Source: Vulcanimicrobiota bacterium | GTDB lineage: Bacteria > Vulcanimicrobiota > Vulcanimicrobiia > Vulcanimicrobiales > Vulcanimicrobiaceae | Assembly (NCBI GenBank): GCA_963777315.1 | Contig: CAVZQC010000005.1 | Coordinates: forward strand, 128,001-192,000 | DNA: 64,000 nucleotides | Reading direction: 5' to 3' | Shown: in pieces, positions 50,373 through 64,000 of the stretch | Layout of the letters: every line of letters starts with the position of its first letter | Numbering within the stretch: the first letter of the stretch is position 1 | Program-made: the position numbers and the translations under genes | Notes under the pieces: generated by a model | What the model saw: only the letters and a program-made list of their open reading frames with translations | The model's database searches: none | Told to the model about the DNA's origin: nothing

Positions 50373-51301
50373 CTTACGACCTCCTGCAATAGACGGTCCC
50401 AATCGCCGAGAAATCGATCCAAGCCGTAGCGCGCTTTGGCGTGGGCGCGCGCATTGCGTCCGAGCTGCGTGCACCGATCCGGCTCGCGCAGCAGGCGTTC
50501 GAGCGACTCGACGAGGGCAGCAACGTTGGTAGAGATGATTCCGGTGCCTGCCGGAACCGCTTCGGGCACTTCGGTGGTGGCCAGCGCGACGACGGGCATT
50601 CCCAAATGCATCGCCTCGATGAGTGAAAGACCCAGCGACGTCCACCGGATCGGATGCAGGTAGACGCGCCGGCGCGCAATTTCACCGTGCAGCCGCTCCT
50701 GCGGCAAGTTCTCGAATCCGCCGCGCGCGCCCGCGCCCATTCCGAACAATTCGACGGGCACGCACGATTCAAACCGTCCGAGCAGATCCGTTCCGGTTAC
50801 GCGCGCACGTCGCTGGGGTTCGTTGATGACCACGGCGCACGAGGCGACTTCGCCCGTATAGCGGTAGCCGGGATCGACGATTCCGTGTTCGACGACGTAC
50901 GTGGGTCGATCGCCGCAATCCCAAAACAGATCGTTGAAGTTCGTCACGTGCACGACCGATACGCCCGGCCAGTCGGCAGCGGGATGGCGCATCGCGTTGA
51001 TTTGGCCTTGCGGCGCGTTGTGCTCGACGTAAATCGCCGGCACGTCGATTCCGGGACGTAGGCCAAGCCACGTTTGCGCGAGATCGTATTCGTGCGGGCG
51101 CTGCAGGATCACGACGTCCGGTTTGAGAGTGCGCGCGTCTTGCGGGCCGATTTCCCGAACGTTTTCCGGCCACTGCCAAGTTTGCGCGCGTCCGCGTCCG
51201 TCGGCGCTGCGATCGGGCAGCACGGGTACGGCATAGTCGTGACCGCCGTGAACGAACGCCGTCATCCACGATCCGTGCACGTGCCAGGCGAAGATCTTCA
51301 T
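50369..51301 (-). CDS. Glycosyltransferase (GT4-like)
   Basis: WHVHGSW N-terminus, RWTSLGLSLIEAM. Confidence 0.88.
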   Translation of the reverse strand: MKIFAWHVHGSWMTAFVHGGHDYAVPVLPDRSADGRGRAQTWQWPENVREIGPQDARTLKPDVVILQRPHEYDLAQTWLGLRPGIDVPAIYVEHNAPQGQINAMRHPAADWPGVSVVHVTNFNDLFWDCGDRPTYVVEHGIVDPGYRYTGEVASCAVVINEPQRRARVTGTDLLGRFESCVPVELFGMGAGARGGFENLPQERLHGEIARRRVYLHPIRWTSLGLSLIEAMHLGMPVVALATTEVPEAVPAGTGIISTNVAALVESLERLLREPDRCTQLGRNARAHAKARYGLDRFLGDWDRLLQEVVS

Positions 51302-52314
51302 CAGGCAACCTCGACGCGCATCGGCGCCAGGCTCTCGAGCGCGCGCAGCACGTCGTCGACCGAAACGCAATCCAAGCACGGCTGGCCTTCTATCGGGCAC
51401 GAGCGTGCGCGGCATCCCGCGCAGGGCGCATGCTGATCGCCCAGCAGCACGTGTTCGGTCCGCCACGGACGAAAACGCGCGGCCGGAACCGTCGGCGCAA
51501 AAATTGATACCACCGGCGTTCCGACGGCCGAGGCTACGTGCGCGGCCGAAGTATTGCCGCACACGACCGCCGACGCGTCGCGCACGATCGCGGCGAACTC
51601 CACGAACGAGGTTTTTCCGCCTAAGTCCACGGCACGCGCGCCGGCCACGTACGCGGTGAGTGCGGACTCTTGCGCGCTTCCCGTCACCACGACGTTGATA
51701 CCGCGCCGGCAGAGCGACGCAACCAGCTCTGCATTGCGATCCGGGAACCACGCACGCGCCGTCACGGTCGATCCTGGATGCACGACGACGTACGGCAAGT
51801 GCTGCACGTTGCCGCGTTCGAGCAGACCGATCATTCGCAAGCGCGCATCGTCATCGGCGGGCAAATCGTAGCCCATCGCCCGCACCAGCGAAAGCGCTCG
51901 TTCGACCTCGTGGATGTCGTCGGGCACGCGGTGACGCACGTCGAGCAGCGAGCCCGGATAGTCGACGCCGATCGCGCCGATTCGCGCAACGCCCGCCATT
52001 CGCAGAAGAAGTGCCAGCGGCAACGGGCTTTGATGAAACGACGTGAGTACGATCGCTTCGTCGAACGTGCGCGTGCGAACGTCCTCGATGAATTCCAGCG
52101 TGCGGGCGAATGAAACCGGCTGCGGGTCCGCATCGATCCATTCGGCTTGCCGAACGAGCGTTTCGCGCACGCCCGGAAGCGCTCGCGCAGCATCGGCGCC
52201 GCGCGGACCGCACAGAAACGTGACATGCGCATCGGCGGCCACTGCGCGCACCGCCGGACCGGTGAGCAGCACGTCGCCGTTGTTGTCCTGGCGAGCCACG
52301 AGCACGCGTTTCAT
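51301..52314 (-). CDS. Glycosyltransferase family 9 (heptosyltransferase-like)
   Basis: RQDNNGDVLL, VHPGS, GNTSAAH, PCAGCRARSCP. Confidence 0.9.
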   Translation of the reverse strand: MKRVLVARQDNNGDVLLTGPAVRAVAADAHVTFLCGPRGADAARALPGVRETLVRQAEWIDADPQPVSFARTLEFIEDVRTRTFDEAIVLTSFHQSPLPLALLLRMAGVARIGAIGVDYPGSLLDVRHRVPDDIHEVERALSLVRAMGYDLPADDDARLRMIGLLERGNVQHLPYVVVHPGSTVTARAWFPDRNAELVASLCRRGINVVVTGSAQESALTAYVAGARAVDLGGKTSFVEFAAIVRDASAVVCGNTSAAHVASAVGTPVVSIFAPTVPAARFRPWRTEHVLLGDQHAPCAGCRARSCPIEGQPCLDCVSVDDVLRALESLAPMRVEVA

Positions 52315-52835
52315 GCCGCGGACCGTGCGTTCAGTGCGAGGACGTAATCGACGGCCGACGCGAGATCTGCGCACACGACCGGCGCCGACTCTATCTCTTG
52401 CGCGCGCGTCACCGGCGTGGGCACCAGAACGGCGTGTGCGCCGGCGCACAGCGCTGCTTCGACGTCGCTGCCGATATCGCCGATCACGATGCATTCTCGC
52501 GGTGAAACGCCGAACTCGCGCGCGGCCGCGTGGATCAAACCCGGCGCAGGTTTGCGGCAGCCGCACTGGGCGCGCGGCTCGTGCGGGCAAACGAACCACC
52601 CGTCGATCGCGCCCACCAGAGCTTCGATGCGGCTGTGCAGGGTGTCGAGCTGGGCGCGCGTGACCGCGCCTTGTGACAGCACGGGCTGATTGGTCACGAC
52701 GCCGATGCGCATGCCGTGCTCGCGCAATCGCCGCACGGCGCTCGCCGCGTGAGGCATCGCGTCCACCGCATCGTCTGCATGTGCGGCGTCCGCAATCAGC
52801 GTGCCGTCGCGATCGAAAAGCACCGCGCGGATCAT
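52311..52835 (-). CDS. gmhB: HAD-IIIA phosphatase, GmhB-like
   Basis: FDRDGTL, VTNQ, CPH...CGCRKP, GDIGSD. Confidence 0.85.
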   Translation of the reverse strand: MIRAVLFDRDGTLIADAAHADDAVDAMPHAASAVRRLREHGMRIGVVTNQPVLSQGAVTRAQLDTLHSRIEALVGAIDGWFVCPHEPRAQCGCRKPAPGLIHAAAREFGVSPRECIVIGDIGSDVEAALCAGAHAVLVPTPVTRAQEIESAPVVCADLASAVDYVLALNARSAA

Positions 52836-53755
52836 TGCGCCGGCTTGCGTAAGAGCGCGGGCATGGCAACCAAACCGCGAATGCGGTGATAGACCGCGGC
52901 AAACGGAATCACGGCGCTCGTGGCCGCAAGCGTGGTGATCTCCTTGGCCGTGCGGGGACCGGGCGCGATGCGTTTCCAGGCAAAATCCGCCGTTAGTCCC
53001 GCCCATGCGGCAAAACACAGCACCGTCGCCAAATGATACGGCCAGCGTCCGCGCGGAGCGTTCGCCCGTTCGCGCCAGTGCGTGCCGTGCAGCGCGCGCA
53101 TCAGCACGTCGTCGGCATTTCCCGCCTGCAGCCGTACGCTGATCCATGCATCCGCCGGGCGTACCGGGTGCTCGGTTTCGCGGCGCCCTTGCGCAATGCG
53201 ATAGCCGGCGTCGAAGACGCGTAACGCAAAGTCGGCGTCCTCGCGATACGCACGGCGAAAGCGCTCGTCGAATCCATCGAGGCGCTGAAGAATCGAACGC
53301 GCGTAGATCATGTCCGCCGTAATCCACGCAGAATGTTGCAATCCGCGCACGTTGCGTTCCCAGTCGGTGGGAGCGCGATCCGCCGGCAGCGGCACGCGCA
53401 CGCGACCCTGCGATCCCACTTCGTCGCGATCCAGCGCGGCGATGTCGGCCACCGCCTGCTCGAGCCATCCGGGCTGCACGCGAACGTCGTCGTCGAGAAA
53501 CGCGATCCATGCCGCCGTCGATTCGCGCCATCCCGAATTGCGCGCAGCGGCTGGTCCCATCGCCTTACCGCGCAGGATGCTGATGCGCGAACGAAGCGCC
53601 GCAGGAGCGTCCACCGCGAGCGGCGCTTCGGGATCGCGGCGATCGTCGACCAGAATGATGCGCCCCAAACTCTCGCTGCGCGAATCACCCAGCGATCGCA
53701 GCAGCTCGCGCAGCGACGCGCGTCCGATCGTCGGGACCACCACGTCAAACCGCAC
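52832..53755 (-). CDS. Glycosyltransferase family 2
   Basis: VVPTIGR, GPAAARN, FLDDD, FDERF...EDADF. Confidence 0.9.
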   Translation of the reverse strand: MRFDVVVPTIGRASLRELLRSLGDSRSESLGRIILVDDRRDPEAPLAVDAPAALRSRISILRGKAMGPAAARNSGWRESTAAWIAFLDDDVRVQPGWLEQAVADIAALDRDEVGSQGRVRVPLPADRAPTDWERNVRGLQHSAWITADMIYARSILQRLDGFDERFRRAYREDADFALRVFDAGYRIAQGRRETEHPVRPADAWISVRLQAGNADDVLMRALHGTHWRERANAPRGRWPYHLATVLCFAAWAGLTADFAWKRIAPGPRTAKEITTLAATSAVIPFAAVYHRIRGLVAMPALLRKPAQ

Positions 53756-55418
53756 CGCTGACCTCGCGTGGCTGCGAGCCGGATTGAAAGACGCCGCTGC
53801 GGCGCAGCAGAAACGGACCGATCGCCAGCGCGTCCACGGGCGCGGAGCCAAAGCACTCCAGAGCGTCGCGCGGATCGTCGACCATCGGCCGCCCTGCGGT
53901 ATTGAAGCTGGTGTTGATGACGACCGGGGTTCCGGTCAGTCGATCGAACTCACGCAGCATTCGCGCAACCAGCGGTTCGTCGCCGGCGTCGACGGTCTGC
54001 ACGCGCGCGGTTCCATCGACGTGCACGGCGGCCGCGATAGCATCCCGCCACTGCGGCTTGACGCGATGCGTGAAGAGCATGTACGGGCTGGGCAGTTGCC
54101 CTTCGAAAATTTCGGATGCGCGCTCCTGCAGCACCATCGGAGCGAGCGGACGAAATTGCTCGCGACCTTTAATCGAGTTGAGCCGTTCCAGGTTTTGCGG
54201 ATACTTGGGATTGGCCAGCAGGCTGCGATGCCCAAGAGCTCGCGGCCCGAACTCGCTGCGTCCCTGGAACCAGCCGACTACGCCGTCGTCCGCGAGGATT
54301 CGCGCAACGGACTGCGCGATGTCGGGCGGCCGTTCGTACTCGATGTGCGCGCCGTCGAGTCGGCGCGCGAGCTGATCTTCATTCCACTCGCGACCCAGCG
54401 CCGCCGTCGTCATCGGCTGCGTGCGATCGCCGTTTTGATGAGCTGCGAACAACGCCGCGCCCAGCGACGTGCCGGCATCGCCGGCGGCGGGCTGAACCCA
54501 AATGCGTTCGAATGGGCCTTCCCGCGCGAGTCGCGCGTTGGCCACGCAGTTGAGCGCGACGCCGCCGGCCATGGCCAGATGCCGGTCCCCGGTCTTCGCG
54601 TGCAAACCGCGCGCCAGCTCCAGGAGCACTTCTTCCAAACGCGCCTGCACGCTCGCGGCCAGATCGGCGTGTGCCCCGATGAACTCGCCGTCATCGCAAC
54701 GCTTTGGCGCAAAACGAGTGAAATCGACCGGATCCGTGTCGAAACCGCCGTCTTCGCGCACCCGGATCGCACGGCGGAACCCGTCCAGAAACGCGGGCTT
54801 GCCGTAACCGGCCAGCCCCATGACCTTGTACTCGTCGCTGGAACGGTGAAAGCCCAGATGCATGGTGAGCTCTTCGTATAAGAGGCCTAACGAACTGGGC
54901 AACGGCTGAACGGCGAGCGTTTGCAAGTCGCCGTCGCGCACCGTGCCGGAAAGATATGACGCGCGTTCGCCCCGGCCATCCGCAACGATAACGGCGCAGT
55001 CGCCCAGCGGTCCGCCCAGATACGCCGAGGCGGCGTGCGCGACGTGATGCGCGACGTACTCCACGCGTGCTCGCTCGATGCCGGGTATCGCCGCCTGCAG
55101 AAATCGCGGCAGCCGCTGCGCGTAGAGCGTGCGCAAAGGCTCCCAATCGCTGCGCGTAACGTCGGCATCGCCGGCAGCTGCAAGCGAGGGATCGTACGAG
55201 TATGCTACGACGTCGACGTCCGAGGGCTGCAGACCGGCGTGTGCCAAACACCACCGCGCGCTGAGAACCGGAAGTTCCCACGTGCTGAACGGCACGCAAT
55301 CTTTGCCGTGCTTGCGGCGGTTGAAGCGTTCTTCTTCGGCCGCGGCGACGATGGTGCCGTCGACAACAAGCGCAGCGGACGAATCATGGAAGACGGCGTT
55401 AATTCCCAGTACGATCAT
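53745..55418 (-). CDS. Carbamoyltransferase (NodU/CmcH/TobZ family)
   Basis: HDSSAAL, EEERF, HHVAHAAS, GGVALNC, EFGPRALGHRS, FRPLAP, NTSFN. Confidence 0.95.
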   Translation of the reverse strand: MIVLGINAVFHDSSAALVVDGTIVAAAEEERFNRRKHGKDCVPFSTWELPVLSARWCLAHAGLQPSDVDVVAYSYDPSLAAAGDADVTRSDWEPLRTLYAQRLPRFLQAAIPGIERARVEYVAHHVAHAASAYLGGPLGDCAVIVADGRGERASYLSGTVRDGDLQTLAVQPLPSSLGLLYEELTMHLGFHRSSDEYKVMGLAGYGKPAFLDGFRRAIRVREDGGFDTDPVDFTRFAPKRCDDGEFIGAHADLAASVQARLEEVLLELARGLHAKTGDRHLAMAGGVALNCVANARLAREGPFERIWVQPAAGDAGTSLGAALFAAHQNGDRTQPMTTAALGREWNEDQLARRLDGAHIEYERPPDIAQSVARILADDGVVGWFQGRSEFGPRALGHRSLLANPKYPQNLERLNSIKGREQFRPLAPMVLQERASEIFEGQLPSPYMLFTHRVKPQWRDAIAAAVHVDGTARVQTVDAGDEPLVARMLREFDRLTGTPVVINTSFNTAGRPMVDDPRDALECFGSAPVDALAIGPFLLRRSGVFQSGSQPREVSGAV

Positions 55419-55491
55419 CGCTTCGTTGCCCCACTGACAACCGACTTTTTTTTGCGTGTGTGCTGCGTGCGCTGCGAACGTGCGCCTATTG

Positions 55492-55546
55492 TTTCCGAGA
55501 AGAGATAACTTAAACGCTCAGGTTAAAAGGGGGCACTTCATGGTAA
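55492..55546. promoter_or_regulatory. Back-to-back SigB-like promoters for the two glycan operons
   Basis: Minus strand GTTTAA-N12-CGGAAA (55515-55492); plus strand GTTAAA-N13-TGGTAA (55522-55546). Confidence 0.45.
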
Positions 55547-55556
55547 AGAGCCGTGC

Positions 55557-56876
55557 ATGCACCGTGCGGCGATATTCGGATGCGGTTACGTCGGTCTGGT
55601 AACGGGCGCGTGTTTTGCCAAGCTGGGACATCACGTTGTCTGCTGCGATACAGACTCTACGAAGATTCGATCGCTGCAGCACGGTGACGTACCGTTGTAC
55701 GAACCGGGATTGCGCGAACTGATCGCGGCACAGCACTCGGCGGCCCGGCTGCAATTCACCGATCGCCCCGCCGAAGCTATGGCGAGCGCAGCCGTTGCGT
55801 TCATTGCCGTGGGGACGCCCACCGGGCCGACCGGCGATGCGGATCTCACGTACGTGCGCCAAGCCGCCCGCGACATCGCCGCATATGCCGGCGGTCCGAC
55901 TATCGTCGTGAACAAATCGACCGTTCCGGTAGAAACCGCGGACATGGTCGAACGCATCGTTACGGCGCACGCGCCTTCCGATTACCGCTTCAGCGTCGCG
56001 TCCAATCCGGAATTTTTACGCGAGGGCAGCGCCATCGAGGACTTCATGCATCCCGACCGCATCGTCGTCGGTTCGCAGGATGAGCACGCAATCGCCGTGC
56101 TGCGCGAGATGTACGCGCCGCTGGGCGCGCCCATGCACGTTGTCGACGTGCATACGGCCGAGATGGTAAAATACGCTGCCAACGCTTTTCTTGCGACCAA
56201 GGTTTCTTTCATCAACGAGATCGCCAATCTGTGCGCCGCGGTCGACGCCGACATCGACGGCGTCATTGCGGGCATCGGCGCCGACGCGCGCATCGGCCCC
56301 GCCTATCTACAGCCGGGATTGGGCTTCGGCGGATCGTGCTTGCCCAAGGACGTCGCGGCCCTAGCCGGCGTCGCGCGCGCCCACGCGATCGAACCGACGA
56401 TGCTCGAAGCGACGCTCAACGTCAACCGGCGGCAAGTCTCGCGCGCGGTTCGGCTGATCGAAGACGCGGTGGGAGATGTGTTCGGCCAAGCCATAGCGGT
56501 TGCCGGGTTGGCGTTTAAGGGCGGCACCGACGACGTCCGGGAATCGCCCGGCATCGTGCTGGTGCAAGCGCTGCTGTCGGCGGGCGCGAACGTTTGCGTG
56601 CTCGACCGCTTCGCCACGGAGCACGCCCGCGCAGTCTTGCGCGATCGCGTAAGCTATGCGGGCTCCGTAAATGAATTGTGCGCGGGAGCCGGCGCCCTGG
56701 TGATTGCAAGCGACGATCCTTCGTACGAACGGCTGAATTGGGAGAGCGTTGCGGCCGCGCTTGCCGATCCCAACGTCATCGATCTTCGCAACATCCTCGA
56801 CCCTGATGCCGTGCGGCGCGCAGGACTGCGCTACGTCGCCGTGGGCCGGGGGCGCCGCGCAGTGCTCGCGCGATGA
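55557..56876 (+). CDS. ugd: UDP-glucose 6-dehydrogenase
   Basis: GCGYVG, NKSTVP, SNPEFLREG, GFGGSCLPKD, AFKGGTDDVRES. Confidence 0.95.
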   Translation: MHRAAIFGCGYVGLVTGACFAKLGHHVVCCDTDSTKIRSLQHGDVPLYEPGLRELIAAQHSAARLQFTDRPAEAMASAAVAFIAVGTPTGPTGDADLTYVRQAARDIAAYAGGPTIVVNKSTVPVETADMVERIVTAHAPSDYRFSVASNPEFLREGSAIEDFMHPDRIVVGSQDEHAIAVLREMYAPLGAPMHVVDVHTAEMVKYAANAFLATKVSFINEIANLCAAVDADIDGVIAGIGADARIGPAYLQPGLGFGGSCLPKDVAALAGVARAHAIEPTMLEATLNVNRRQVSRAVRLIEDAVGDVFGQAIAVAGLAFKGGTDDVRESPGIVLVQALLSAGANVCVLDRFATEHARAVLRDRVSYAGSVNELCAGAGALVIASDDPSYERLNWESVAAALADPNVIDLRNILDPDAVRRAGLRYVAVGRGRRAVLAR

Positions 56877-57838
56877 ACGTGCTCATTACCGGCGTCGCCG
56901 GTTTTTTGGGATCGCACTTGGCGGACGCGTATCTGCAGCGAGGCGACAACGTCGTGGGTGTGGATGACTTGTCGACGTCCACCGGCGAGAACATCGCGCA
57001 TCTGCAGCCCGAACCGCGCTTTGATTTCATCCAAGCCGACTTGTGCGAAGGCATTACCCGGATCGAACGTCCGCCCGATCTGATCTTGCACTTCGCATCA
57101 CCCGCCAGCCCGCAGGATTATGCGCGCGCTCCGATAGCAACGCTCAACGTCAACGGCTCGGGCACCGAGCGCTGCTGCAAGTTGGCGCTGGCGAACGGCG
57201 CGCGGCTGATATACGCCTCGACCTCCGAAGTGTACGGCGATCCGCTGGTGCATCCACAACCCGAACGCTACCGCGGCAACGTCAATTCACTTGGTCCGCG
57301 TTCGTGCTACGACGAGGGCAAGCGTTTCGGCGAAGCGATGATTGCGGCGTACCGCCGCACGCACGGCTTGGATGCGCGCATCGCGCGCATCTTCAATACG
57401 TATGGTCCTCGCATGCGCGCCGGCGATGGCCGGGTGGTGCCGGCCTTCATTAAACAGGCGTTGGAGGGAACGCCGCTGACCGTCTTCGGCGACGGCACGC
57501 AAACGCGCTCGCTGTGTTTCGTCGACGATCTCGTCGAGGGCATCACTGCCTTGGCAGCGTTGGAACGTCCGGCCCACGAGGTCGTGAATCTGGGTTCGGA
57601 GTTCGAAGTTGACGTAAACGAAATCGCGCGCACGATAGCGCGGCTATGCGGGGTAACGCTCACCGTGGAGCAGTGCCCTCTGCCGCCCGACGATCCGGTG
57701 CGGCGCCGTCCGGACCTTGCGCGCGCTCGCGCGATGCTGGGCTGGGAACCGCAGACGCCGTTGGAAACCGGCATGCGCAAAACGATCGAGTGGTTTCGCG
57801 CGCAGCATGCTTTTGAAAAGGAGACCGTCGGATCATGA
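56873..57838 (+). CDS. UDP-glucuronate decarboxylase (UXS)-like NAD-dependent epimerase/dehydratase
   Basis: GVAGFLGS, ASPASP, STSEVYGDP, CYDEGKR, RIFNTYGPRM, DGRVV. Confidence 0.92.
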   Translation: MNVLITGVAGFLGSHLADAYLQRGDNVVGVDDLSTSTGENIAHLQPEPRFDFIQADLCEGITRIERPPDLILHFASPASPQDYARAPIATLNVNGSGTERCCKLALANGARLIYASTSEVYGDPLVHPQPERYRGNVNSLGPRSCYDEGKRFGEAMIAAYRRTHGLDARIARIFNTYGPRMRAGDGRVVPAFIKQALEGTPLTVFGDGTQTRSLCFVDDLVEGITALAALERPAHEVVNLGSEFEVDVNEIARTIARLCGVTLTVEQCPLPPDDPVRRRPDLARARAMLGWEPQTPLETGMRKTIEWFRAQHAFEKETVGS

Positions 57839-58563
57839 CCGCGACTACGGGATATACGCAAACCTCTGCGGCCGCGCGCGCGCTGCACGGGACGTTCATC
57901 GTCACCGGAGCTGCGTCGGGGCTCGGATTGGCCATCGCACAGGCGATTGGAGCCGCGGGCGCAAGCGCCGTCGGCTTTGACGTCAACGCGCCTTCGGGCG
58001 ATTTCGAGCACGAGATCGTCGACGTTTCCGACACGTCGATAGTGGAAGCGAAAGTTCGCGAAGTTGCGCGGCGACACGGTGGGCTTAGCGGTGTGGTTGC
58101 GAACGCAGGCATCGACGCGTGCGGGCGTTTCCAGGACGTGTCCGCCGGCGCGTGGGAGCGCGTGATCAAAGTCAACTTGATGGGCACTGCGGCAGTCGTG
58201 CGCGCCGCATTGCCGCATCTGATCGAAAGTCACGGGCGCGTCGTCACGGTAGCATCCACTTTGGGCCTGCGCGCGGTGAGCGACGCGACCGCGTACTGCG
58301 CGAGCAAATTCGGTGTGGTTGGATTCACCCGAGCCCTCGCAACCGAACTGGCGGGTCAAGTCGGGGTGACGCTGCTGATTCCCGGCGGCATGCACACGCA
58401 TTTCTTCGATGACCGCGACGAAAAATACAAGCCCGGTGCGGACGCCCGGCTCAATCGCCCGGAAGACGTAGCGCAAGCAGCGGTTTTCGCACTTGCCCAG
58501 CCGCCGGGCTGCGAAGTGCGCGAGATGCTGATCTGTCCGTCGATGGAGACGTCCTGGCCTTAA
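57835..58563 (+). CDS. Short-chain dehydrogenase/reductase
   Basis: TGAASGLG, NAG, YCASK. Confidence 0.92.
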   Translation: MTATTGYTQTSAAARALHGTFIVTGAASGLGLAIAQAIGAAGASAVGFDVNAPSGDFEHEIVDVSDTSIVEAKVREVARRHGGLSGVVANAGIDACGRFQDVSAGAWERVIKVNLMGTAAVVRAALPHLIESHGRVVTVASTLGLRAVSDATAYCASKFGVVGFTRALATELAGQVGVTLLIPGGMHTHFFDDRDEKYKPGADARLNRPEDVAQAAVFALAQPPGCEVREMLICPSMETSWP

Positions 58564-58607
58564 GCGTTCCCGGACTTTCGCTCCAAAACAACGCATTTTC
58601 AGCCCTA

Positions 58608-58643
58608 TATACCCTTGACGGAATATGCCTTATGGGGGATAAT
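58608..58643 (+). promoter_or_regulatory. Sigma70 promoter with palindromic operators, probably giving a leaderless transcript
   Basis: TTGACG-N17-GATAAT, GTG start 5 nt downstream; ATATACC-N6-GGAATAT and a similar second box. Confidence 0.6.
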
Positions 58644-58648
58644 ACGTT

Positions 58649-59011
58649 GTGGCATGGGAAGTCGAATTTACGGACGAGTTCAAGGAGTGGTGGGACGATA
58701 TCGATGGCGGCGCTCAAGCAGACATCGATGCATGCGTTCGGCTCCTAGCGGAGGTGGGACCGGCGTTAGGACGGCCTCACGTCGATACTGTAAGCGGCTC
58801 GGCCCACGCCAACATGAAGGAGCTCAGAGTCCAGAGCAATGCGCGGCCGTTTCGGATATTTTTTGCCTTCGATCCACGCAGAACTGGCATTTTATTAATC
58901 GGCGGCGACAAGACTGGCAAAAAGCGATTCTACGAAGAGATGATTTTAATCGCTGACCATCTCTACGATGAGCACCTTGAAGAAATTGGAGACGAAGGCG
59001 CAAATGAGTAA
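58649..59011 (+). CDS. RelE/HigB-like type II toxin (Gp49/DUF891 type)
   Basis: GPALGRPHVDT...NMKELR...RIFFAFDPRR...LLIGGDK. Confidence 0.9.
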   Translation: MAWEVEFTDEFKEWWDDIDGGAQADIDACVRLLAEVGPALGRPHVDTVSGSAHANMKELRVQSNARPFRIFFAFDPRRTGILLIGGDKTGKKRFYEEMILIADHLYDEHLEEIGDEGANE

Positions 59012-59345
59012 GAGTTACTCAGTACTCCACGAGAAATTGACGCCGGAACAGCGTAAACGCAGTGACGCGCGACTTGAGCACTTGCGTAATCAAGTCCGGC
59101 TTCAGGAACTACGCGTTGCGCGGGCGCAGACGCAGGAAACGATCGCCGGTGTCATGCGCATTCCTCAGTCGTCTGTTTCTAAAATTGAACAGCGCACCGA
59201 CGTCTATGTCAGCACGATTCGCCGTTACCTTGAAGCGGTTGGCGGCAAACTTCAAATTATCGCGCAGTTTCCGGACGGAGAGACCTTTGAGATTACGCAG
59301 TTCCATGAGATTGGCGAACCTGAACAGGAACTCGTGGACGCGTAA
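59004..59345 (+). CDS. XRE/HigA-like antitoxin
   Basis: LQELR...TQETIA...QSSVSKIEQRTD...STIRRYLEAVGGKL. Confidence 0.9.
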   Translation: MSKSYSVLHEKLTPEQRKRSDARLEHLRNQVRLQELRVARAQTQETIAGVMRIPQSSVSKIEQRTDVYVSTIRRYLEAVGGKLQIIAQFPDGETFEITQFHEIGEPEQELVDA

Positions 59346-59387
59346 ATCCTTCAGTGGGATTTTACTAAGATCTTCGGCTTGGAAACA

Positions 59388-59415
59388 TGGTGGCCCCAGC
59401 GCGGATTCGAGCCCC
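59388..59415 (-). other. tRNA 3'-end remnant (possible att scar)
   Basis: Minus strand GGGGCTCGAATCCGCGCTGGGGCCACCA: T-loop-like TCGAATCC, acceptor 3' strand and CCA, with no 5' half. Confidence 0.5.
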
Positions 59416-59421
59416 GAAGCC

Positions 59422-61317
59422 CTACCGCGGCCGCACGATAACGATCGCAACGCGCGACTCGTCGGCCCACGCGGCCGCTGCAACCAGCGGACTGGTCAGG
59501 TACGCAAAGGCCTGTGCGATCTCGGCGCGCGAGCAGCCCGCGTGCGTGCCGTTGGCGGCCAGTTTCGCGTCGACGAGCGCGATCGCCACGTCTGCGGTAA
59601 TCGACGCCGCATCCGACCGCGCATTTCCTTGCGCAGCCGTGAGTTGCATCTGCCATCCCTCGCTTCGCAGATAGCTGCAGATAATCGTTAAGCGCTTCAC
59701 GCTGCCGTGTTGGCGTGCCCACAGCAATTCGCCAACGCGATCCGCTGCCAAGCCCGGCGCAAGCATGTCGCGCAGTTCGACGGCGGTAGCGCCGGCGCCG
59801 AGCAGTTGCTGGAGATCCCGGACGGTCCACGCGCTCACGCCGTGTTGTTGTAGTTCCGACGTGAATTCCAGTTCGCCGGGAAAGTCCGGGCCGACGATCG
59901 TGCAATACTGCGCGCCGTACGCATCGCGATACTTGCTGGCTTCAAAGCAGTCCGGCTGCGTGACTTGAGAGCGCGCGGTTTTGCACTCGAGCATGACGCG
60001 GTACTGCAGCGGGCCCAGCACCGCGTCTGCGTAGCCGTCCGGAGCATCGTTTCCGCCCAAGTGCGTCGCGCGAAAGCCCAGCATCGTAAACGCATCGCAA
60101 ACCGCGCGTTCGAACGCAGCGGGATCGTCGCCGTGTGAGGTTTGGCTCAGCCGCGCGCACAGCTCTTCAGCGCCAGGAGCGGGCGGCGGCTGCGGCACCG
60201 CAATCGCCGGCCACGGATCCGGCGGCTCGTTGATGCGAAACCGGCGATCGTCGTCCTGCACGATCAGGGGTTTGCGCTTGCGCCCTTCGGTGCGAGCGAT
60301 GTATTCGATCAGCGCGGTATAGACGTATTTGCGGCTCGTGTGCGGCGGCAGCGTTCCATTTTTGATGGCTTCGGCTAAAATTTCGTCCGCCGACCGCGGG
60401 TGCCCGTCGCTCAGAATGGCCAGCACCGCGTTTAACACGTGACCGCGTTCCGGCGCACTCGAGGGCGTCGTCATCACCGGGTACACGCGCTGGTCGACGC
60501 GTGAGAAGCGTTGATCGTCGATGATGCGTACTTGCGCGCCGAAGACTTCGCCGGCGGTATGAAATCTTTCGGCAAAGCCAGCCGCGCCGATGCTTCCGGC
60601 CCGGACTTTTCCCACCTCGTCCCATTGCAGCGGGGCGCACACGCTCAGCCGCGCATCTCCACGCAAGGTGTACGGCAGCGCGCTAAAGCGTCGCGGCGCA
60701 TTGGAACCGACGTGAACGTGCACGCGATCGTCGTTTCGCACGTTCGGATCGGTAGTAAGCAACGATGGTGCGCGCCGTACGGCTTCATCGGCGATTTCGT
60801 GCAGCCACGCCCGCACGGGCGCGTATTCCGGTGCATCGCAGAACGGCAGCCACAGGCCCATTCCCCGCGCGCCGGCCAGGACCGGAATGGAACGAACCTC
60901 GCGCTCAACAAGGACCTGGTGTATCGCGCGCGCTGCATCGTCCAACATGGGCGCGGCGGCCGTGGCATCCAACTCCAACAGAATGCGCGCGAACCGCAGG
61001 CGAAGCGGGTCGTTCGCCGTGGGCGTCCAGCTGTGAAATTCGACGGCGGAATCGCGGTGGCAGAGCCACAGCAGCGCGTTGGCGCTCAGTCCGACGTAGC
61101 AATCGCGCACGCCGCCGACGTCGACCTGCACCGATGCAATGGTTTTCGGCAGAGGCTTCGAAGTGGGGCCGTGCCATTGAGGCGTTGCGCTAAAGCCGTG
61201 GGGAAAACTGACCGCAACGACGGGAATCGCTCCGAAGAGGCGCTCGAGGAGCGGCGCCACGAGATCGTAGTGCGCCAGGACGGGAACCGTCGATGGTTCG
61301 TGCTGCAAGACATCCAT
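59422..61317 (-). CDS. Fusion protein: degenerate LigD/Prim-PolC-like AEP domain + winged HTH + PD-(D/E)xK (Mrr-like) endonuclease
   Basis: YDLVAPLL..PVVAVSFPHG, VEFHSW, ALPYTLRG, SVCAPLQWDEV (LigD Pol-like); AVLAILSDGHPRSADEI (HTH); FERAVCDAF..LGF..LGG..APDG..MLECKT (nuclease). Confidence 0.8.
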   Translation of the reverse strand: MDVLQHEPSTVPVLAHYDLVAPLLERLFGAIPVVAVSFPHGFSATPQWHGPTSKPLPKTIASVQVDVGGVRDCYVGLSANALLWLCHRDSAVEFHSWTPTANDPLRLRFARILLELDATAAAPMLDDAARAIHQVLVEREVRSIPVLAGARGMGLWLPFCDAPEYAPVRAWLHEIADEAVRRAPSLLTTDPNVRNDDRVHVHVGSNAPRRFSALPYTLRGDARLSVCAPLQWDEVGKVRAGSIGAAGFAERFHTAGEVFGAQVRIIDDQRFSRVDQRVYPVMTTPSSAPERGHVLNAVLAILSDGHPRSADEILAEAIKNGTLPPHTSRKYVYTALIEYIARTEGRKRKPLIVQDDDRRFRINEPPDPWPAIAVPQPPPAPGAEELCARLSQTSHGDDPAAFERAVCDAFTMLGFRATHLGGNDAPDGYADAVLGPLQYRVMLECKTARSQVTQPDCFEASKYRDAYGAQYCTIVGPDFPGELEFTSELQQHGVSAWTVRDLQQLLGAGATAVELRDMLAPGLAADRVGELLWARQHGSVKRLTIICSYLRSEGWQMQLTAAQGNARSDAASITADVAIALVDAKLAANGTHAGCSRAEIAQAFAYLTSPLVAAAAWADESRVAIVIVRPR

Positions 61318-61407
61318 ATCAGGCGCCTACTTGGCTGCCGGTTGTCTGCTTACCTGCCTGCTCCGTCGAGTTCCTGGCGCCCCGTCCCATGCGGGTACAG
61401 AGTCTGC

Positions 61408-62448
61408 GTGAACCTGGGAATCGGTTTGGACTTTCCCCCGATGGAAGCGCAGACGGCCAAGTCGCTGCCGCATGAGCCCAACTACCAATTCGAGCCCAAA
61501 TGGGATGGGTTTCGCGCGTTGTGCTTCAGGGACGGCGACGACGTGGCCCTGCAATCGAAATCCGGCCAGTCGTTGGCGCGCTACTTTCCCGAACTGGTGG
61601 CGGCGACAAAAGCGCTCAAGTGCGAGCGCTTCGTCATCGACGGCGAGATCGTCGTGCCGGTCGAGGATCGCTTGGACTTCGATCAGTTGCTGCAGCGCAT
61701 CCACCCTGCCGCCAGCCGCGTCTCGATGTTGTCGGCTCGATACCCCGCAACGTATGTCGTTTTCGATATCCTCGTCGACGAGCGCGCAAAACCGTTGTAT
61801 CAGTTACGGTTGAACGAACGTCGCTCCGCTCTGGACGACTTCGCGCACAAATTTCTGCAAGATCAGCCGAGGTTCAAGTTGTCTCCGGTAACCGCAGACC
61901 GCCGAGTCGCCGAACGGTGGTATTCGTCCGTCGGCGGAGCTTTAGACGGCGTTATCGCCAAGCGTACGGACATTGCGTACTCTTCCGGCGACCGCCGCGG
62001 GATGCTCAAGATAAAGCGGCTGCGAACTGCCGATTGCGTGGTGGGCGGTTTTCGCCTGGCAAACGACGGAGCCTCGCTCGGCTCGTTGCTGCTGGGTCTC
62101 TACGACGGCGACGGCGCGCTCGACTACGTCGGTTTCACATCCGGCTTTTCCGCCGCGGAGAAGAAGTCGCTATTGAAAAAGCTGAACGATCTCAAGACCG
62201 ACGTCTCGTTCACGGCGCGCACGCCCGGCGGTCCGAGCCGGTGGAACCGCGGCAAAGAAACGGCGTGGGTTCCGGTCAAACCTTCGATCGTTTTGGAGGT
62301 CGAGTTCGATCACGTCAGCGGCGGACGTTTTCGCCACGGAACGCGGCCGCTGCGCTTCCGTCCCGATAAATCCCCAAAGCAGTGCACGATGGAACAGCTG
62401 AATCAGCCGATCGGCACATCGCCGTTTTCGCTCGCCGCCGCGGACTAA
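61408..62448 (+). CDS. ligC: ATP-dependent DNA ligase (LigC type)
   Basis: EPKWDGFR, DGEIV, FDIL, DGVIAK, KIKRLRTADCVVGG, GGPSRW, RFRHG, RPDK. Confidence 0.9.
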   Translation: MNLGIGLDFPPMEAQTAKSLPHEPNYQFEPKWDGFRALCFRDGDDVALQSKSGQSLARYFPELVAATKALKCERFVIDGEIVVPVEDRLDFDQLLQRIHPAASRVSMLSARYPATYVVFDILVDERAKPLYQLRLNERRSALDDFAHKFLQDQPRFKLSPVTADRRVAERWYSSVGGALDGVIAKRTDIAYSSGDRRGMLKIKRLRTADCVVGGFRLANDGASLGSLLLGLYDGDGALDYVGFTSGFSAAEKKSLLKKLNDLKTDVSFTARTPGGPSRWNRGKETAWVPVKPSIVLEVEFDHVSGGRFRHGTRPLRFRPDKSPKQCTMEQLNQPIGTSPFSLAAAD

Positions 62449-62563
62449 GGCTCTACTTCACAATAATGTCGACTTTGCTCTTCGATAGCTTCGATTGCGC
62501 TCGTTCCTTCAAAGACGCGCATTTGGTCGCCTTTTGCGCTGGTCTCCGCCCCGAGTGTATTCG

Positions 62564-64000
62564 TTATGGCGCTGCGAAAGTTAGATCGCTTGCATAGCCG
62601 CTGGCAAAGTTGCCGCTCGTGAAGACCTGATTACCATCTGTGTCGTAGACTTGTATAATGCCCTGACCCGAAACGTACAGATGCGAATTGCTCGGATCGA
62701 ACGCGACCCATCTCGGGAAATGAAGGTTGGCGAACGATCCGCTCGTCGTAATTGCGTTACCGTTCCGATCGTAGACCAAGAGCGTGGGAGGACTAAAGTT
62801 GTAGATCGCTGCGTACACCCGGCCCTTGAGATCGAACGCGGTGTCTACGGCACCGGTGCTGTTTGGGAAGGATCCGGCCGTGGTGATTTGGTTGCCATTC
62901 TCATCATAAGCCCTGATCGGTTGATCGAATTCTAAGTACAAACGGCGCGTAGTCGGATCAAACGAAATGCCGGCTGATACTCCCTGATCTGCGAATGAAC
63001 CCGGCGACGGGAGTTGTTCGCCGTTCTGATCATAGACTGTGATGAAATCGCTGTTTGAAATATAATTCGAAATGTACAATCGGCCCTTGCTGGAGTCAAC
63101 GGCAAGGTCCTGAGAGAATTCGGTGTTTGGAAACGATCCGGTGGTCGAGACTTGATTGCCGTTCTGATCGTAAACCGCAATCGAGTTGGTCCTGGTCGCC
63201 CCATTGCTGTTCAGCACATACAGGTGACCGTTGAGCGAGTCGAAATCAATGGCGTACGGTTCAATGAGATCCAAGAACGGCCCAGTCGTCACAATTCTGT
63301 TGCCGTTCTCATCGTAGACCATTATCGTGTCACTTGTGGTGTTGGTCACGTAGAGCGCCGGGGTCGGTGCGAGCAGCGCTTGCCCGGTGCAGCCGCAGCT
63401 GTGGAGAGTCGCCGTCACGATGCCTGGCGCGTTGGGTTCGGCCATAGCAATGGGCAGGAAGCTGAAGACGTTACCGCCCAACGGCGTTATTTTTACGACG
63501 TTCGAGGTGAGCGTTATCGAGGACGCGTTGTCCGGGCTGACGATCGCGTTGCCGTCGGCATCCTCCGGAGTCACGGCGAATTTTTCCGCCTGCGGGCCGA
63601 CGAGCTCGTAAACGTTTTTGTTTGCCTGCGTAATGGGAATCACGAACGGCTGAGAGCCGCTCGGCGCCAGCACAATTTTCGTGCACAAGCCCTCGAGTAA
63701 GGCGGTGATCGCGTTGCTTTGCCCGGCAATGATTCGCCGTCCGACCGTTACCCATGCAAGAAGCTTGCCGGCGCCGTTTGGTTGATCCCAAGCCTCGATC
63801 AGGAACGAGTCGGTACCGGGCGGGGCGTCGATAGTGATGGTTGTCGTTGCCGCCGCCGCCCGGGACGGTGGCGCATTCGCAACGACGGTAGGCTTCGTTG
63901 CATTGTTGACCGTAATGGAAACGCTCCGCGTCGAGGCCGAGACGGAGCCGACTCCCGTTGGCGCCCCCCAATGCATGGTGAACGTAGCACTCGTCGTACC
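62564..64000 (-). CDS. Surface/secreted protein with NHL-like beta-propeller repeats (5' end beyond the window)
   Basis: Frame open to the window end; repeats of about 45 aa, VYD(E/Q)NGNQxxTxGSFxN; N-terminal Ig-like segment. Confidence 0.78.
   Translation of the reverse strand, partial: GTTSATFTMHWGAPTGVGSVSASTRSVSITVNNATKPTVVANAPPSRAAAATTTITIDAPPGTDSFLIEAWDQPNGAGKLLAWVTVGRRIIAGQSNAITALLEGLCTKIVLAPSGSQPFVIPITQANKNVYELVGPQAEKFAVTPEDADGNAIVSPDNASSITLTSNVVKITPLGGNVFSFLPIAMAEPNAPGIVTATLHSCGCTGQALLAPTPALYVTNTTSDTIMVYDENGNRIVTTGPFLDLIEPYAIDFDSLNGHLYVLNSNGATRTNSIAVYDQNGNQVSTTGSFPNTEFSQDLAVDSSKGRLYISNYISNSDFITVYDQNGEQLPSPGSFADQGVSAGISFDPTTRRLYLEFDQPIRAYDENGNQITTAGSFPNSTGAVDTAFDLKGRVYAAIYNFSPPTLLVYDRNGNAITTSGSFANLHFPRWVAFDPSNSHLYVSGQGIIQVYDTDGNQVFTSGNFASGYASDLTFAAP

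Follow-up and report, generated by a model that had tools for sequence, protein, structure and literature searches.

A catalytically dead LigD/Prim-PolC domain joined to a FokI/Mrr-like nuclease in Vulcanimicrobiota: a candidate gated anti-invader protein

What does a DNA-repair polymerase fold do once its active site is gone and an intact nuclease is attached to it? The question is raised by a gene in a 64,000-nucleotide stretch of DNA (here called the window) from a Vulcanimicrobiota bacterium (GCA_963777315.1, contig CAVZQC010000005.1, positions 128,001 to 192,000). The gene encodes P0001, a protein of 631 amino acids (aa), and lies head to head with ligC, the gene of an ATP-dependent ligase. 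On balance, we read P0001 as a stand-alone, horizontally mobile nuclease directed against invaders (phages or plasmids) and gated by its pseudo-polymerase.

Pseudo-polymerase, nuclease and two winged helices

The gene and its domains are located in the window as follows.

59422..61317, minus strand: P0001 gene, 631 aa; in order, dead LigD/Prim-PolC fold, winged helix, PD-(D/E)xK nuclease, winged helix
60502..61281, minus strand: catalytically dead LigD/Prim-PolC (AEP) domain, residues 13-272; metal, nucleoside triphosphate (NTP) and 5'-phosphate sites lost
60226..60456, minus strand: winged helix 1, residues 288-364
59707..60180, minus strand: FokI/Mrr-like nuclease, residues 380-537, with E403, D427, E444, K446 and E459
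59431..59706, minus strand: winged helix 2, residues 538-629

An earlier note on this DNA, made by eye, had described a 631-aa reading frame with an N-terminal LigD/Prim-PolC fold, and Pfam and an AlphaFold model bore this out. LigD_Prim-Pol (PF21686) matched residues 13-256 with 87.9 bits (cut-off 27.4, E 1e-24); NCBIfam ligD_pol reached 76 bits, with 215 needed. The model, built from a 119-row alignment (pLDDT 92.7, pTM 0.61), compared with LigD/Prim-PolC structures at Z 28.8-30.6, and together with the PF21686 match this places the domain in the AEP fold of the LigD clade. Foldseek, which the note had proposed as a check, agreed and recovered both LigD-Pol and FokI-like folds. The helix-turn-helix (HTH)-like segment seen behind the polymerase fold is a winged helix in the model (residues 288-364, Z up to 9.2), and the supposed helical C-terminal tail is actually a second winged-helix domain (residues 538-629, Z up to 9.6).

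The nuclease, already thought intact, matched Mrr_cat at residues 398-475 (22.9 bits, cut-off 21), and the model resembled FokI (Z 15.1, root-mean-square deviation (rmsd) 13.3 across two domains) and HindIII (Z 14.4, rmsd 2.7, 149 aligned). Modelled from its single sequence, the C-terminal half reached pLDDT 47, too low for use. Across the family the PD-(D/E)xK fold is accompanied by an intact E...PD...(D/E)xK site, with E403, D427, E444 and E459 in 80/80 aligned members and K446 in 78/80. In a profile comparison, HLGG-x3-PDG...(E/D)xK could be aligned with the catalytic motif of FokI (E 0.02; Foldseek E 8e-8). Mrr_cat matched 69/80 members and FokI_cleav_dom 3/80, and the nearest Atlas clusters were Mrr, FokI-cleavage and HARE-HTH proteins. 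Winged helix 1 is the best conserved of the separately aligned parts (59% mean column identity); it had no sequence match in the PDB, and profile comparison detected no likeness between the two winged helices. A HARE-HTH assignment, also suggested earlier, failed at the Pfam level, as PF05066 stayed below its cut-off with matches in 2/103 members (best E 0.014); an Atlas cluster with HARE-HTH, scoring 0.84, is a lead only.

Loss of the polymerase site was followed by alignment to M. tuberculosis PolDom, whose numbering is used here, in two sets: the 119 closest proteins and 84 more diverse domains from genome loci. The catalytic substitutions read by eye were confirmed: PolDom D137, S172, K175, H178 and D227 correspond to E115, A148, R151, G154 and H202 of P0001. 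The metal ligands (D137/D139 of motif I and D227 of motif III) are not conserved, D137 being retained in 1/119 and 0/84 domains and D227 in 0/119 and 1/84; D117, which P0001 does retain, is not a family trait (15/119). The NTP triad S172/H178/R244 (roles from PMC8656161) is broken as well. S172 was retained in 1/119, the motif II histidine H178 in 0/119 and 0/84, and the nearby K175 in 0/119, with only R244 frequent (118/119 and 63/84).

The 5'-phosphate pocket (N13/K16/K26) and wedge (R53/F63/F64) of PolDom, whose roles are given in PMC3898472, fared no better. The NxxK ahead of the first conserved tyrosine, present in both active paralogues of the source genome, occurred in 0/119; in the same alignment K26 was not conserved, the R53 column held N/S/T/A and F63 was variable. 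Of pocket and wedge only the F64 aromatic was kept (114/119), and elsewhere P55, N231 and a PY(S/T)LR motif with R244 remain. The earlier note had proposed a sensor of DNA ends or gaps; its 5'-phosphate form is weakened because the residues that serve this role in PolDom (N13, K16, K26, R53 and F63) are not retained. The domain is nevertheless under purifying selection and not decaying, because dN/dS was 0.10-0.35 in 15/15 close pairs tested.

Distribution, gene arrangements and mobility

A protein search gave 285 relatives among 8,000 candidates scored. P0001 thus belongs to a real family, and the doubt that the fusion might exist in a single assembly is ruled out. Named relatives were mostly Eremiobacteraeota/Baltobacteraceae, with one labelled Dormibacteraeota and one only 'bacterium', and the nearest Atlas cluster to P0001 was mostly Vulcanimicrobiota. 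Among 401 genomes of the phylum, the dead domain was found in 117 (110/296, 4/5 and 2/30 in three families, and the source genome) and in none of 18 other families. The nuclease module occurred in 136 genomes. Both halves were present in 111, the dead domain only in 6 and the nuclease only in 25, so that the nuclease accompanies the dead domain in 111/117; one genome had at least 5 nuclease matches. These counts are descriptive, as the set includes incomplete genomes and kin. They also include genomes flagged unpublished (G263, G359, G128 and G178), which account for two of the six in the dead-domain-only class and for one protease linkage described below.

Arrangements were recorded at 122 genome loci, picked by score and not as a random sample. 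There were 70 intact and 6 truncated fusions, 14 tandem pairs with the dead domain first (several of them frameshifted fusions), 4 tandem pairs with the nuclease first, 10 divergent pairs and 1 convergent pair, 9 loci with the dead domain only and 8 with the nuclease only. Two loci were misfiled by the census script: L105 has the dead domain first, and L072 is a frameshifted fusion. Trees of the two halves (FastTree, branch support values not considered) correlated, with a Spearman coefficient of 0.53 over 66 loci and 0.59 over 11 split loci; a single partner swap was visible (L103/L107), and one genus was scattered over at least four clades. Dead domain and nuclease therefore stay tied together, whether fused, in tandem in both orders, or divergent. 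The complex prediction for a split pair scored 0.00. Tandem duplications were also seen: L062 and L065 have one dead domain followed by two nuclease genes, and L056 and L078 a fusion followed by a second, partial copy.

The gene is patchy and multicopy, and it has moved recently between genera. Over 1,897 bp, which cover the gene and ~65 bases upstream, a pair of genomes from two genera are 98% identical; their flanks are not common to both, and insertion sequence (IS) genes lie near the gene in each. Even in close relatives, family genes are found at unrelated sites. A self-mobile element was rejected, as aligned flanks in 8 groups of close copies had no terminal repeats or target duplications by eye; a Pfam scan of P0001 found no transposase domain.

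First and second neighbours were scanned against Pfam (296/362; 4 excluded as family fragments, 62 not scanned) and compared with 150/173 control genes, taken from carrier genomes in 20 arbitrarily chosen 10-kb stretches. Toxin-antitoxin, IS or defence genes made up 19/296 neighbours versus 1/150 control genes (p 0.003), in a classification made by the analyst after the names had been seen. The 19 comprised 10 toxin-antitoxin genes, 6 IS or recombinase genes and 3 defence genes (Cas1, DndE and MZB); the control gene was a methylase. The gene thus occupies variable spots, and defence-island linkage is not demonstrated by the neighbour counts. No DNA methyltransferase was among the 296 neighbours, and an N6/N4 methylase query matched at 1/121 loci, ~6.5 kb away, so a cognate methyltransferase adjoining the nuclease, as in type II restriction-modification, is missing. 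A link to REP-like repeats was rejected (11/102 loci versus 10/131 control genes, p 0.49). The only recurrent neighbour cluster consisted of beta-propeller lipoprotein genes, at 27 loci (a raw count) and in variable position. Viral contigs held no relative (one pattern, 7 candidates), the nuclease half had no match among 50,697 phage records, plasmids gave ordinary LigD matches only, and a viral fold library single-domain likenesses only.

A protealysin-like M4 protease adjoins the system or is fused to it at 5/121 genome loci and 6/80 metagenome loci (L045, L077, L098, L101, L131, L187, L188, L193, L203, L204 and L211), in at least four gene orders and with HExxH intact in 11/11. Such proteases were rare (18/301 genomes), and 12/25 matches lay beside family genes by coordinates, most of the others not being checkable. 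RecA and FtsZ are cleaved by protealysin, and an inhibitor usually accompanies this protease (PMC9505478). Two proteins, P0131 (L075:9188-11959) and P0181, end in an additional C-terminal domain. The closest Atlas cluster that bears a name scores 0.92 and is uracil-DNA-glycosylase-like, with that family on 19% of its members, and serves as a lead only; the same domain was found at L010:2623-3216, ~1.3 kb from a family gene. At L045:2-2827, an MZB-domain gene and a PLD gene adjoin the system, and we take them to resemble drmB and drmC of DISARM.

The insertion site beside ligC

Further features around the gene are listed here.

61408..62448, plus strand: LigC ATP-dependent ligase, a chance neighbour by insertion, outside the system
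58564..61374, no strand: 2.8-kb insert, missing at the same site in the same-genus genome G199
58649..59345, plus strand: HigB/HigA-like toxin-antitoxin pair (Gp49/DUF891 + XRE HTH), within the same 2.8-kb insert
59388..59414, minus strand: decayed 3' end of tRNA-Glu(CTC), 7 bases past the P0001 stop codon

LigC matched NF006078 with 428 bits (cut-off 296). The 90-bp gap to P0001 first reported is correct for a GTG start at 61408 and becomes 123 bp from the ATG at 61441. A break-processing partnership with LigC, one of the two roles offered by the earlier note, was rejected. Source-genome LigC and Ku were used in tblastn searches of the flanks, up to 9 kb each side for genome loci (less at contig ends) and up to 5 kb for metagenome loci, and gave no match at any of 121 other genome loci and 80 metagenome loci (0/201); the P0001 locus, with ligC, is the sole case. 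In addition, the dehydrogenase-ligC junction recurs in G199, where the place of the insert is taken by 587 bp of imperfect REP-like repeats in an array (L109:4043-4630). The P0001 homologue of G199 itself is 52% identical and lies 1.2 Mb away, versus 83-95% identity for LigC and 84% for Prim-PolC between the two genomes. LigC is a bystander and the link is incidental.

The conserved partner of LigC is an intact Prim-PolC, encoded ~300 bases past the window end and directly beside ligC in three other relatives. In the source genus ligC runs against Prim-PolC, the two being convergent and separated by unrelated genes; they also face each other in G089, whereas in the relatives G240 and G160 the pair is co-oriented. 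The source genome has a separate locus for non-homologous end joining (NHEJ; L008, G000:C2, ~498-502 kb), where ku and a ligase-like gene lie next to a second LigD-type polymerase, also intact. Ku is encoded in 269/296 genomes of the main family, and six carriers of the full fusion, 91-98% complete, had no Ku match, so that dependence on Ku was rejected too.

The toxin-antitoxin pair of the insert was not found beside any P0001 homologue and is preceded by a sigma-70-like site (58615-58643, 10/12 positions; one such site is expected by chance). The tRNA remnant matches the end of the source genome's tRNA-Glu(CTC), with CCA added, at 23/27 positions, a score reached by 0/2000 random 34-mers. 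The full tRNA-Glu(CTC) is on another contig, and an Rfam scan of 58500-62600 gave no match. The remnant is possibly an old integration site. Between ligC and Prim-PolC, a beta-propeller lipoprotein-like gene of lower GC content (62564-64000, minus strand) occupies a second variable site, where G199 carries different genes. On the other side, 51301-58563 holds glycosyltransferase-, carbamoyltransferase-, phosphatase-, UDP-glucose dehydrogenase- and epimerase-like genes (named by eye) and a short-chain dehydrogenase gene.

Readings of the pseudo-polymerase

When an intact FokI/Mrr-like nuclease has no methyltransferase, it has to be held in check or directed to foreign targets, a point also made for stand-alone winged-helix nucleases (PMC11037411). 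Because no methyltransferase lies beside it, the P0001 nuclease would need a gate, and the pseudo-polymerase would supply this gate or the targeting. The patchy, multicopy, mobile and domain-shuffling behaviour of the gene appears to fit a conflict system and not housekeeping repair. For these traits we judge the anti-phage or anti-plasmid role, the second option of the earlier note, to be the likeliest use, with moderate confidence. The pseudo-polymerase would bind an infection signal and then license cutting, which may need two nuclease domains, by analogy with FokI. The signal would, with less assurance, be other than the 5'-phosphate end read by LigD. Within the anti-invader reading it is possible that a residual nucleic-acid ligand is bound, e.g. 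a 3' single-stranded end or a nucleotide; a protein ligand, with the fold as a decoy that draws phage proteins directed against host LigD/Prim-PolC, is a somewhat more tentative option, and any other signal seems unlikely. In the protease-bearing subtype, the protealysin-like protease may be a third part, either an activator or a second effector. In its fullest and quite speculative form, P0001 would be an immune receptor of the integrated-decoy type, in which an inactive version of the host end-joining polymerase baits phage proteins that target LigD/Prim-PolC or bind ends, and unleashes the FokI-like nuclease, in some lineages through or alongside the protease.

Known systems offer partial likenesses. 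P0001 has the same fold as the LigD polymerase domain and Prim-PolC (PDB 2iru, 6sa0, 5dmu and 2fao) over ~260-290 residues, with Z 29-31. Unlike them, its family has lost the metal aspartates, S172/K175/H178, N13/K16/K26, R53 and F63, is fused or linked to a nuclease, and has no link to ku or ligC. The most plausible task of the pseudo-polymerase is to gate or aim the nuclease, in the manner of the N-terminal domains of Shedu (SduA) proteins, single-gene immune nucleases that likewise join a PD-(D/E)xK core to an N-terminal domain in a proposed sensor role. In Shedu the core is controlled by an N-terminal sensor, and members lacking a sensor exist too (10.1101/2023.08.10.552793; 10.1101/2023.08.10.552762). 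In contrast to Shedu, P0001 and the 80 members had no DUF4263/SduA match in Pfam and PADLOC scans, and the FokI/Mrr-like core is flanked by a winged helix on each side. Neither 'primase' nor 'LigD' occurs in the main text of the Shedu sensor survey, whose 79 sensor families are in a supplement, outside this check. The FokI cleavage domain (type IIS) shares the catalytic motif, whereas P0001 is without the FokI recognition domains, as judged by sequence, and without a partner methyltransferase.

DRT7/UG10, CRISPR-associated Prim-Pol (CAPP) and TOTE systems also place an AEP fold in a conflict setting, and CAPP and a TOTE primase were among the fold matches of the P0001 model. AEP folds in defence are known as active enzymes, and DRT7 needs an active primase (10.64898/2026.02.16.706125); unlike it, P0001 carries a dead AEP domain from the LigD clade, one that is tied to a nuclease. 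Other AEP families are covered in PMC5862659. The architecture, thought undescribed at first sight, was not found in a literature search that covered few subscription papers and no supplements.

Several observations weigh against an anti-invader nuclease gated in this way. Dedicated defence genes were not enriched among the neighbours (3/296 versus 1/150, p = 1), and PADLOC gave weak REase_II matches only (21/80 members, best E 2e-5). The DNA-binding surface of the dead domain is largely lost: its median lysine count is 4 and its net charge -3, whereas six active paralogues have 11-14 lysines and charges of -1 to +7 in the corresponding stretch. The 25 nuclease-only genomes, although some are partial matches or incomplete genomes, mean that the gate is not always needed. 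Finally, in genus g25 (7 loci: L113-L117, L119 and L120) the dead domain is a stand-alone gene of 250-270 aa without a nuclease, at a fixed syntenic site near rpoB between GNAT-like and CsrA-like genes (named by eye), which hints at a function of its own and is left unexplained by this reading; all seven copies lack the motif I DxD and H178, and 5 retain D227.

The best surviving rival, with a low but appreciable probability, is a modification-dependent (type IV) restriction enzyme: a modified base would be recognised by one winged helix or by both, which would aim the nuclease, and the dead fold would be only an accessory binding or stabilising domain. Type IV endonucleases such as Mrr, DpnI and HARE-HTH-Mrr also combine a winged helix and a PD-(D/E)xK core without a methyltransferase, and the Mrr_cat matches, the nearest Atlas clusters and the nuclease-only copies agree with this. 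Fusions of this kind are proven N6-methyladenine (m6A)-dependent enzymes, and stand-alone winged-helix nucleases are expected to need modified DNA (PMC11037411). However, P0001 has an additional pseudo-polymerase and a second winged helix, winged helix 1 lacks a PDB sequence match, HARE-HTH is almost missing from the family, and the retention of a dead domain beside the nuclease in several arrangements would go unexplained.

A selfish addiction module, with the nuclease as toxin, the dead fold as antitoxin and the protease, where present, removing the antitoxin, is improbable. Two-gene split forms, protease linkage, single-gene mobility and toxin-antitoxin neighbours would suit it, but most loci (70/122) encode one fused chain, 25 genomes have the nuclease only, and the gene was not found on plasmids or phages in the searches above. 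Very unlikely is a role in NHEJ or excision repair, with the nuclease processing breaks alongside LigC, Prim-PolC or Ku. The origin of the fold from LigD/Prim-PolC, the divergent ligC of the source genome and the presence of Ku in most hosts point that way, yet the other loci are without ligC and ku, six fusion carriers are without a Ku match, about two thirds of family genomes are without the gene, close relatives have it at unrelated sites, and the 5'-phosphate pocket is lost. Hardly probable at all is a different enzyme that has acquired H200-x-H202, E115 and D148 as a catalytic or metal site of a new kind: these residues are common in the 119 closest proteins (H200 115, H202 112, E115 103, D148 96) but less so in the 84-row set (65, 54, 54 and 62) and in 11 split copies (5, 2, 2 and 5), and a universal His-x-His site was rejected because its occurrence varies by clade.

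The family is compact, a single gene in its fused form, and frequent in a soil phylum rich in uncultured members, at about a third of main-family genomes. Sensor-gated nucleases are a known form of bacterial immunity, and no report was found of a LigD/Prim-PolC pseudo-enzyme as their partner domain. As a tool, too, a FokI-like nuclease gated through a new binding module could be of use. If the dead fold does read a phage signal, a DNA-repair enzyme has been recruited into immunity, and the family would provide a handle on phage interference with end joining. If the fold is a decoy, a repair enzyme has been turned into a guard of its repair pathway, which would point to undiscovered phage inhibitors of bacterial NHEJ.

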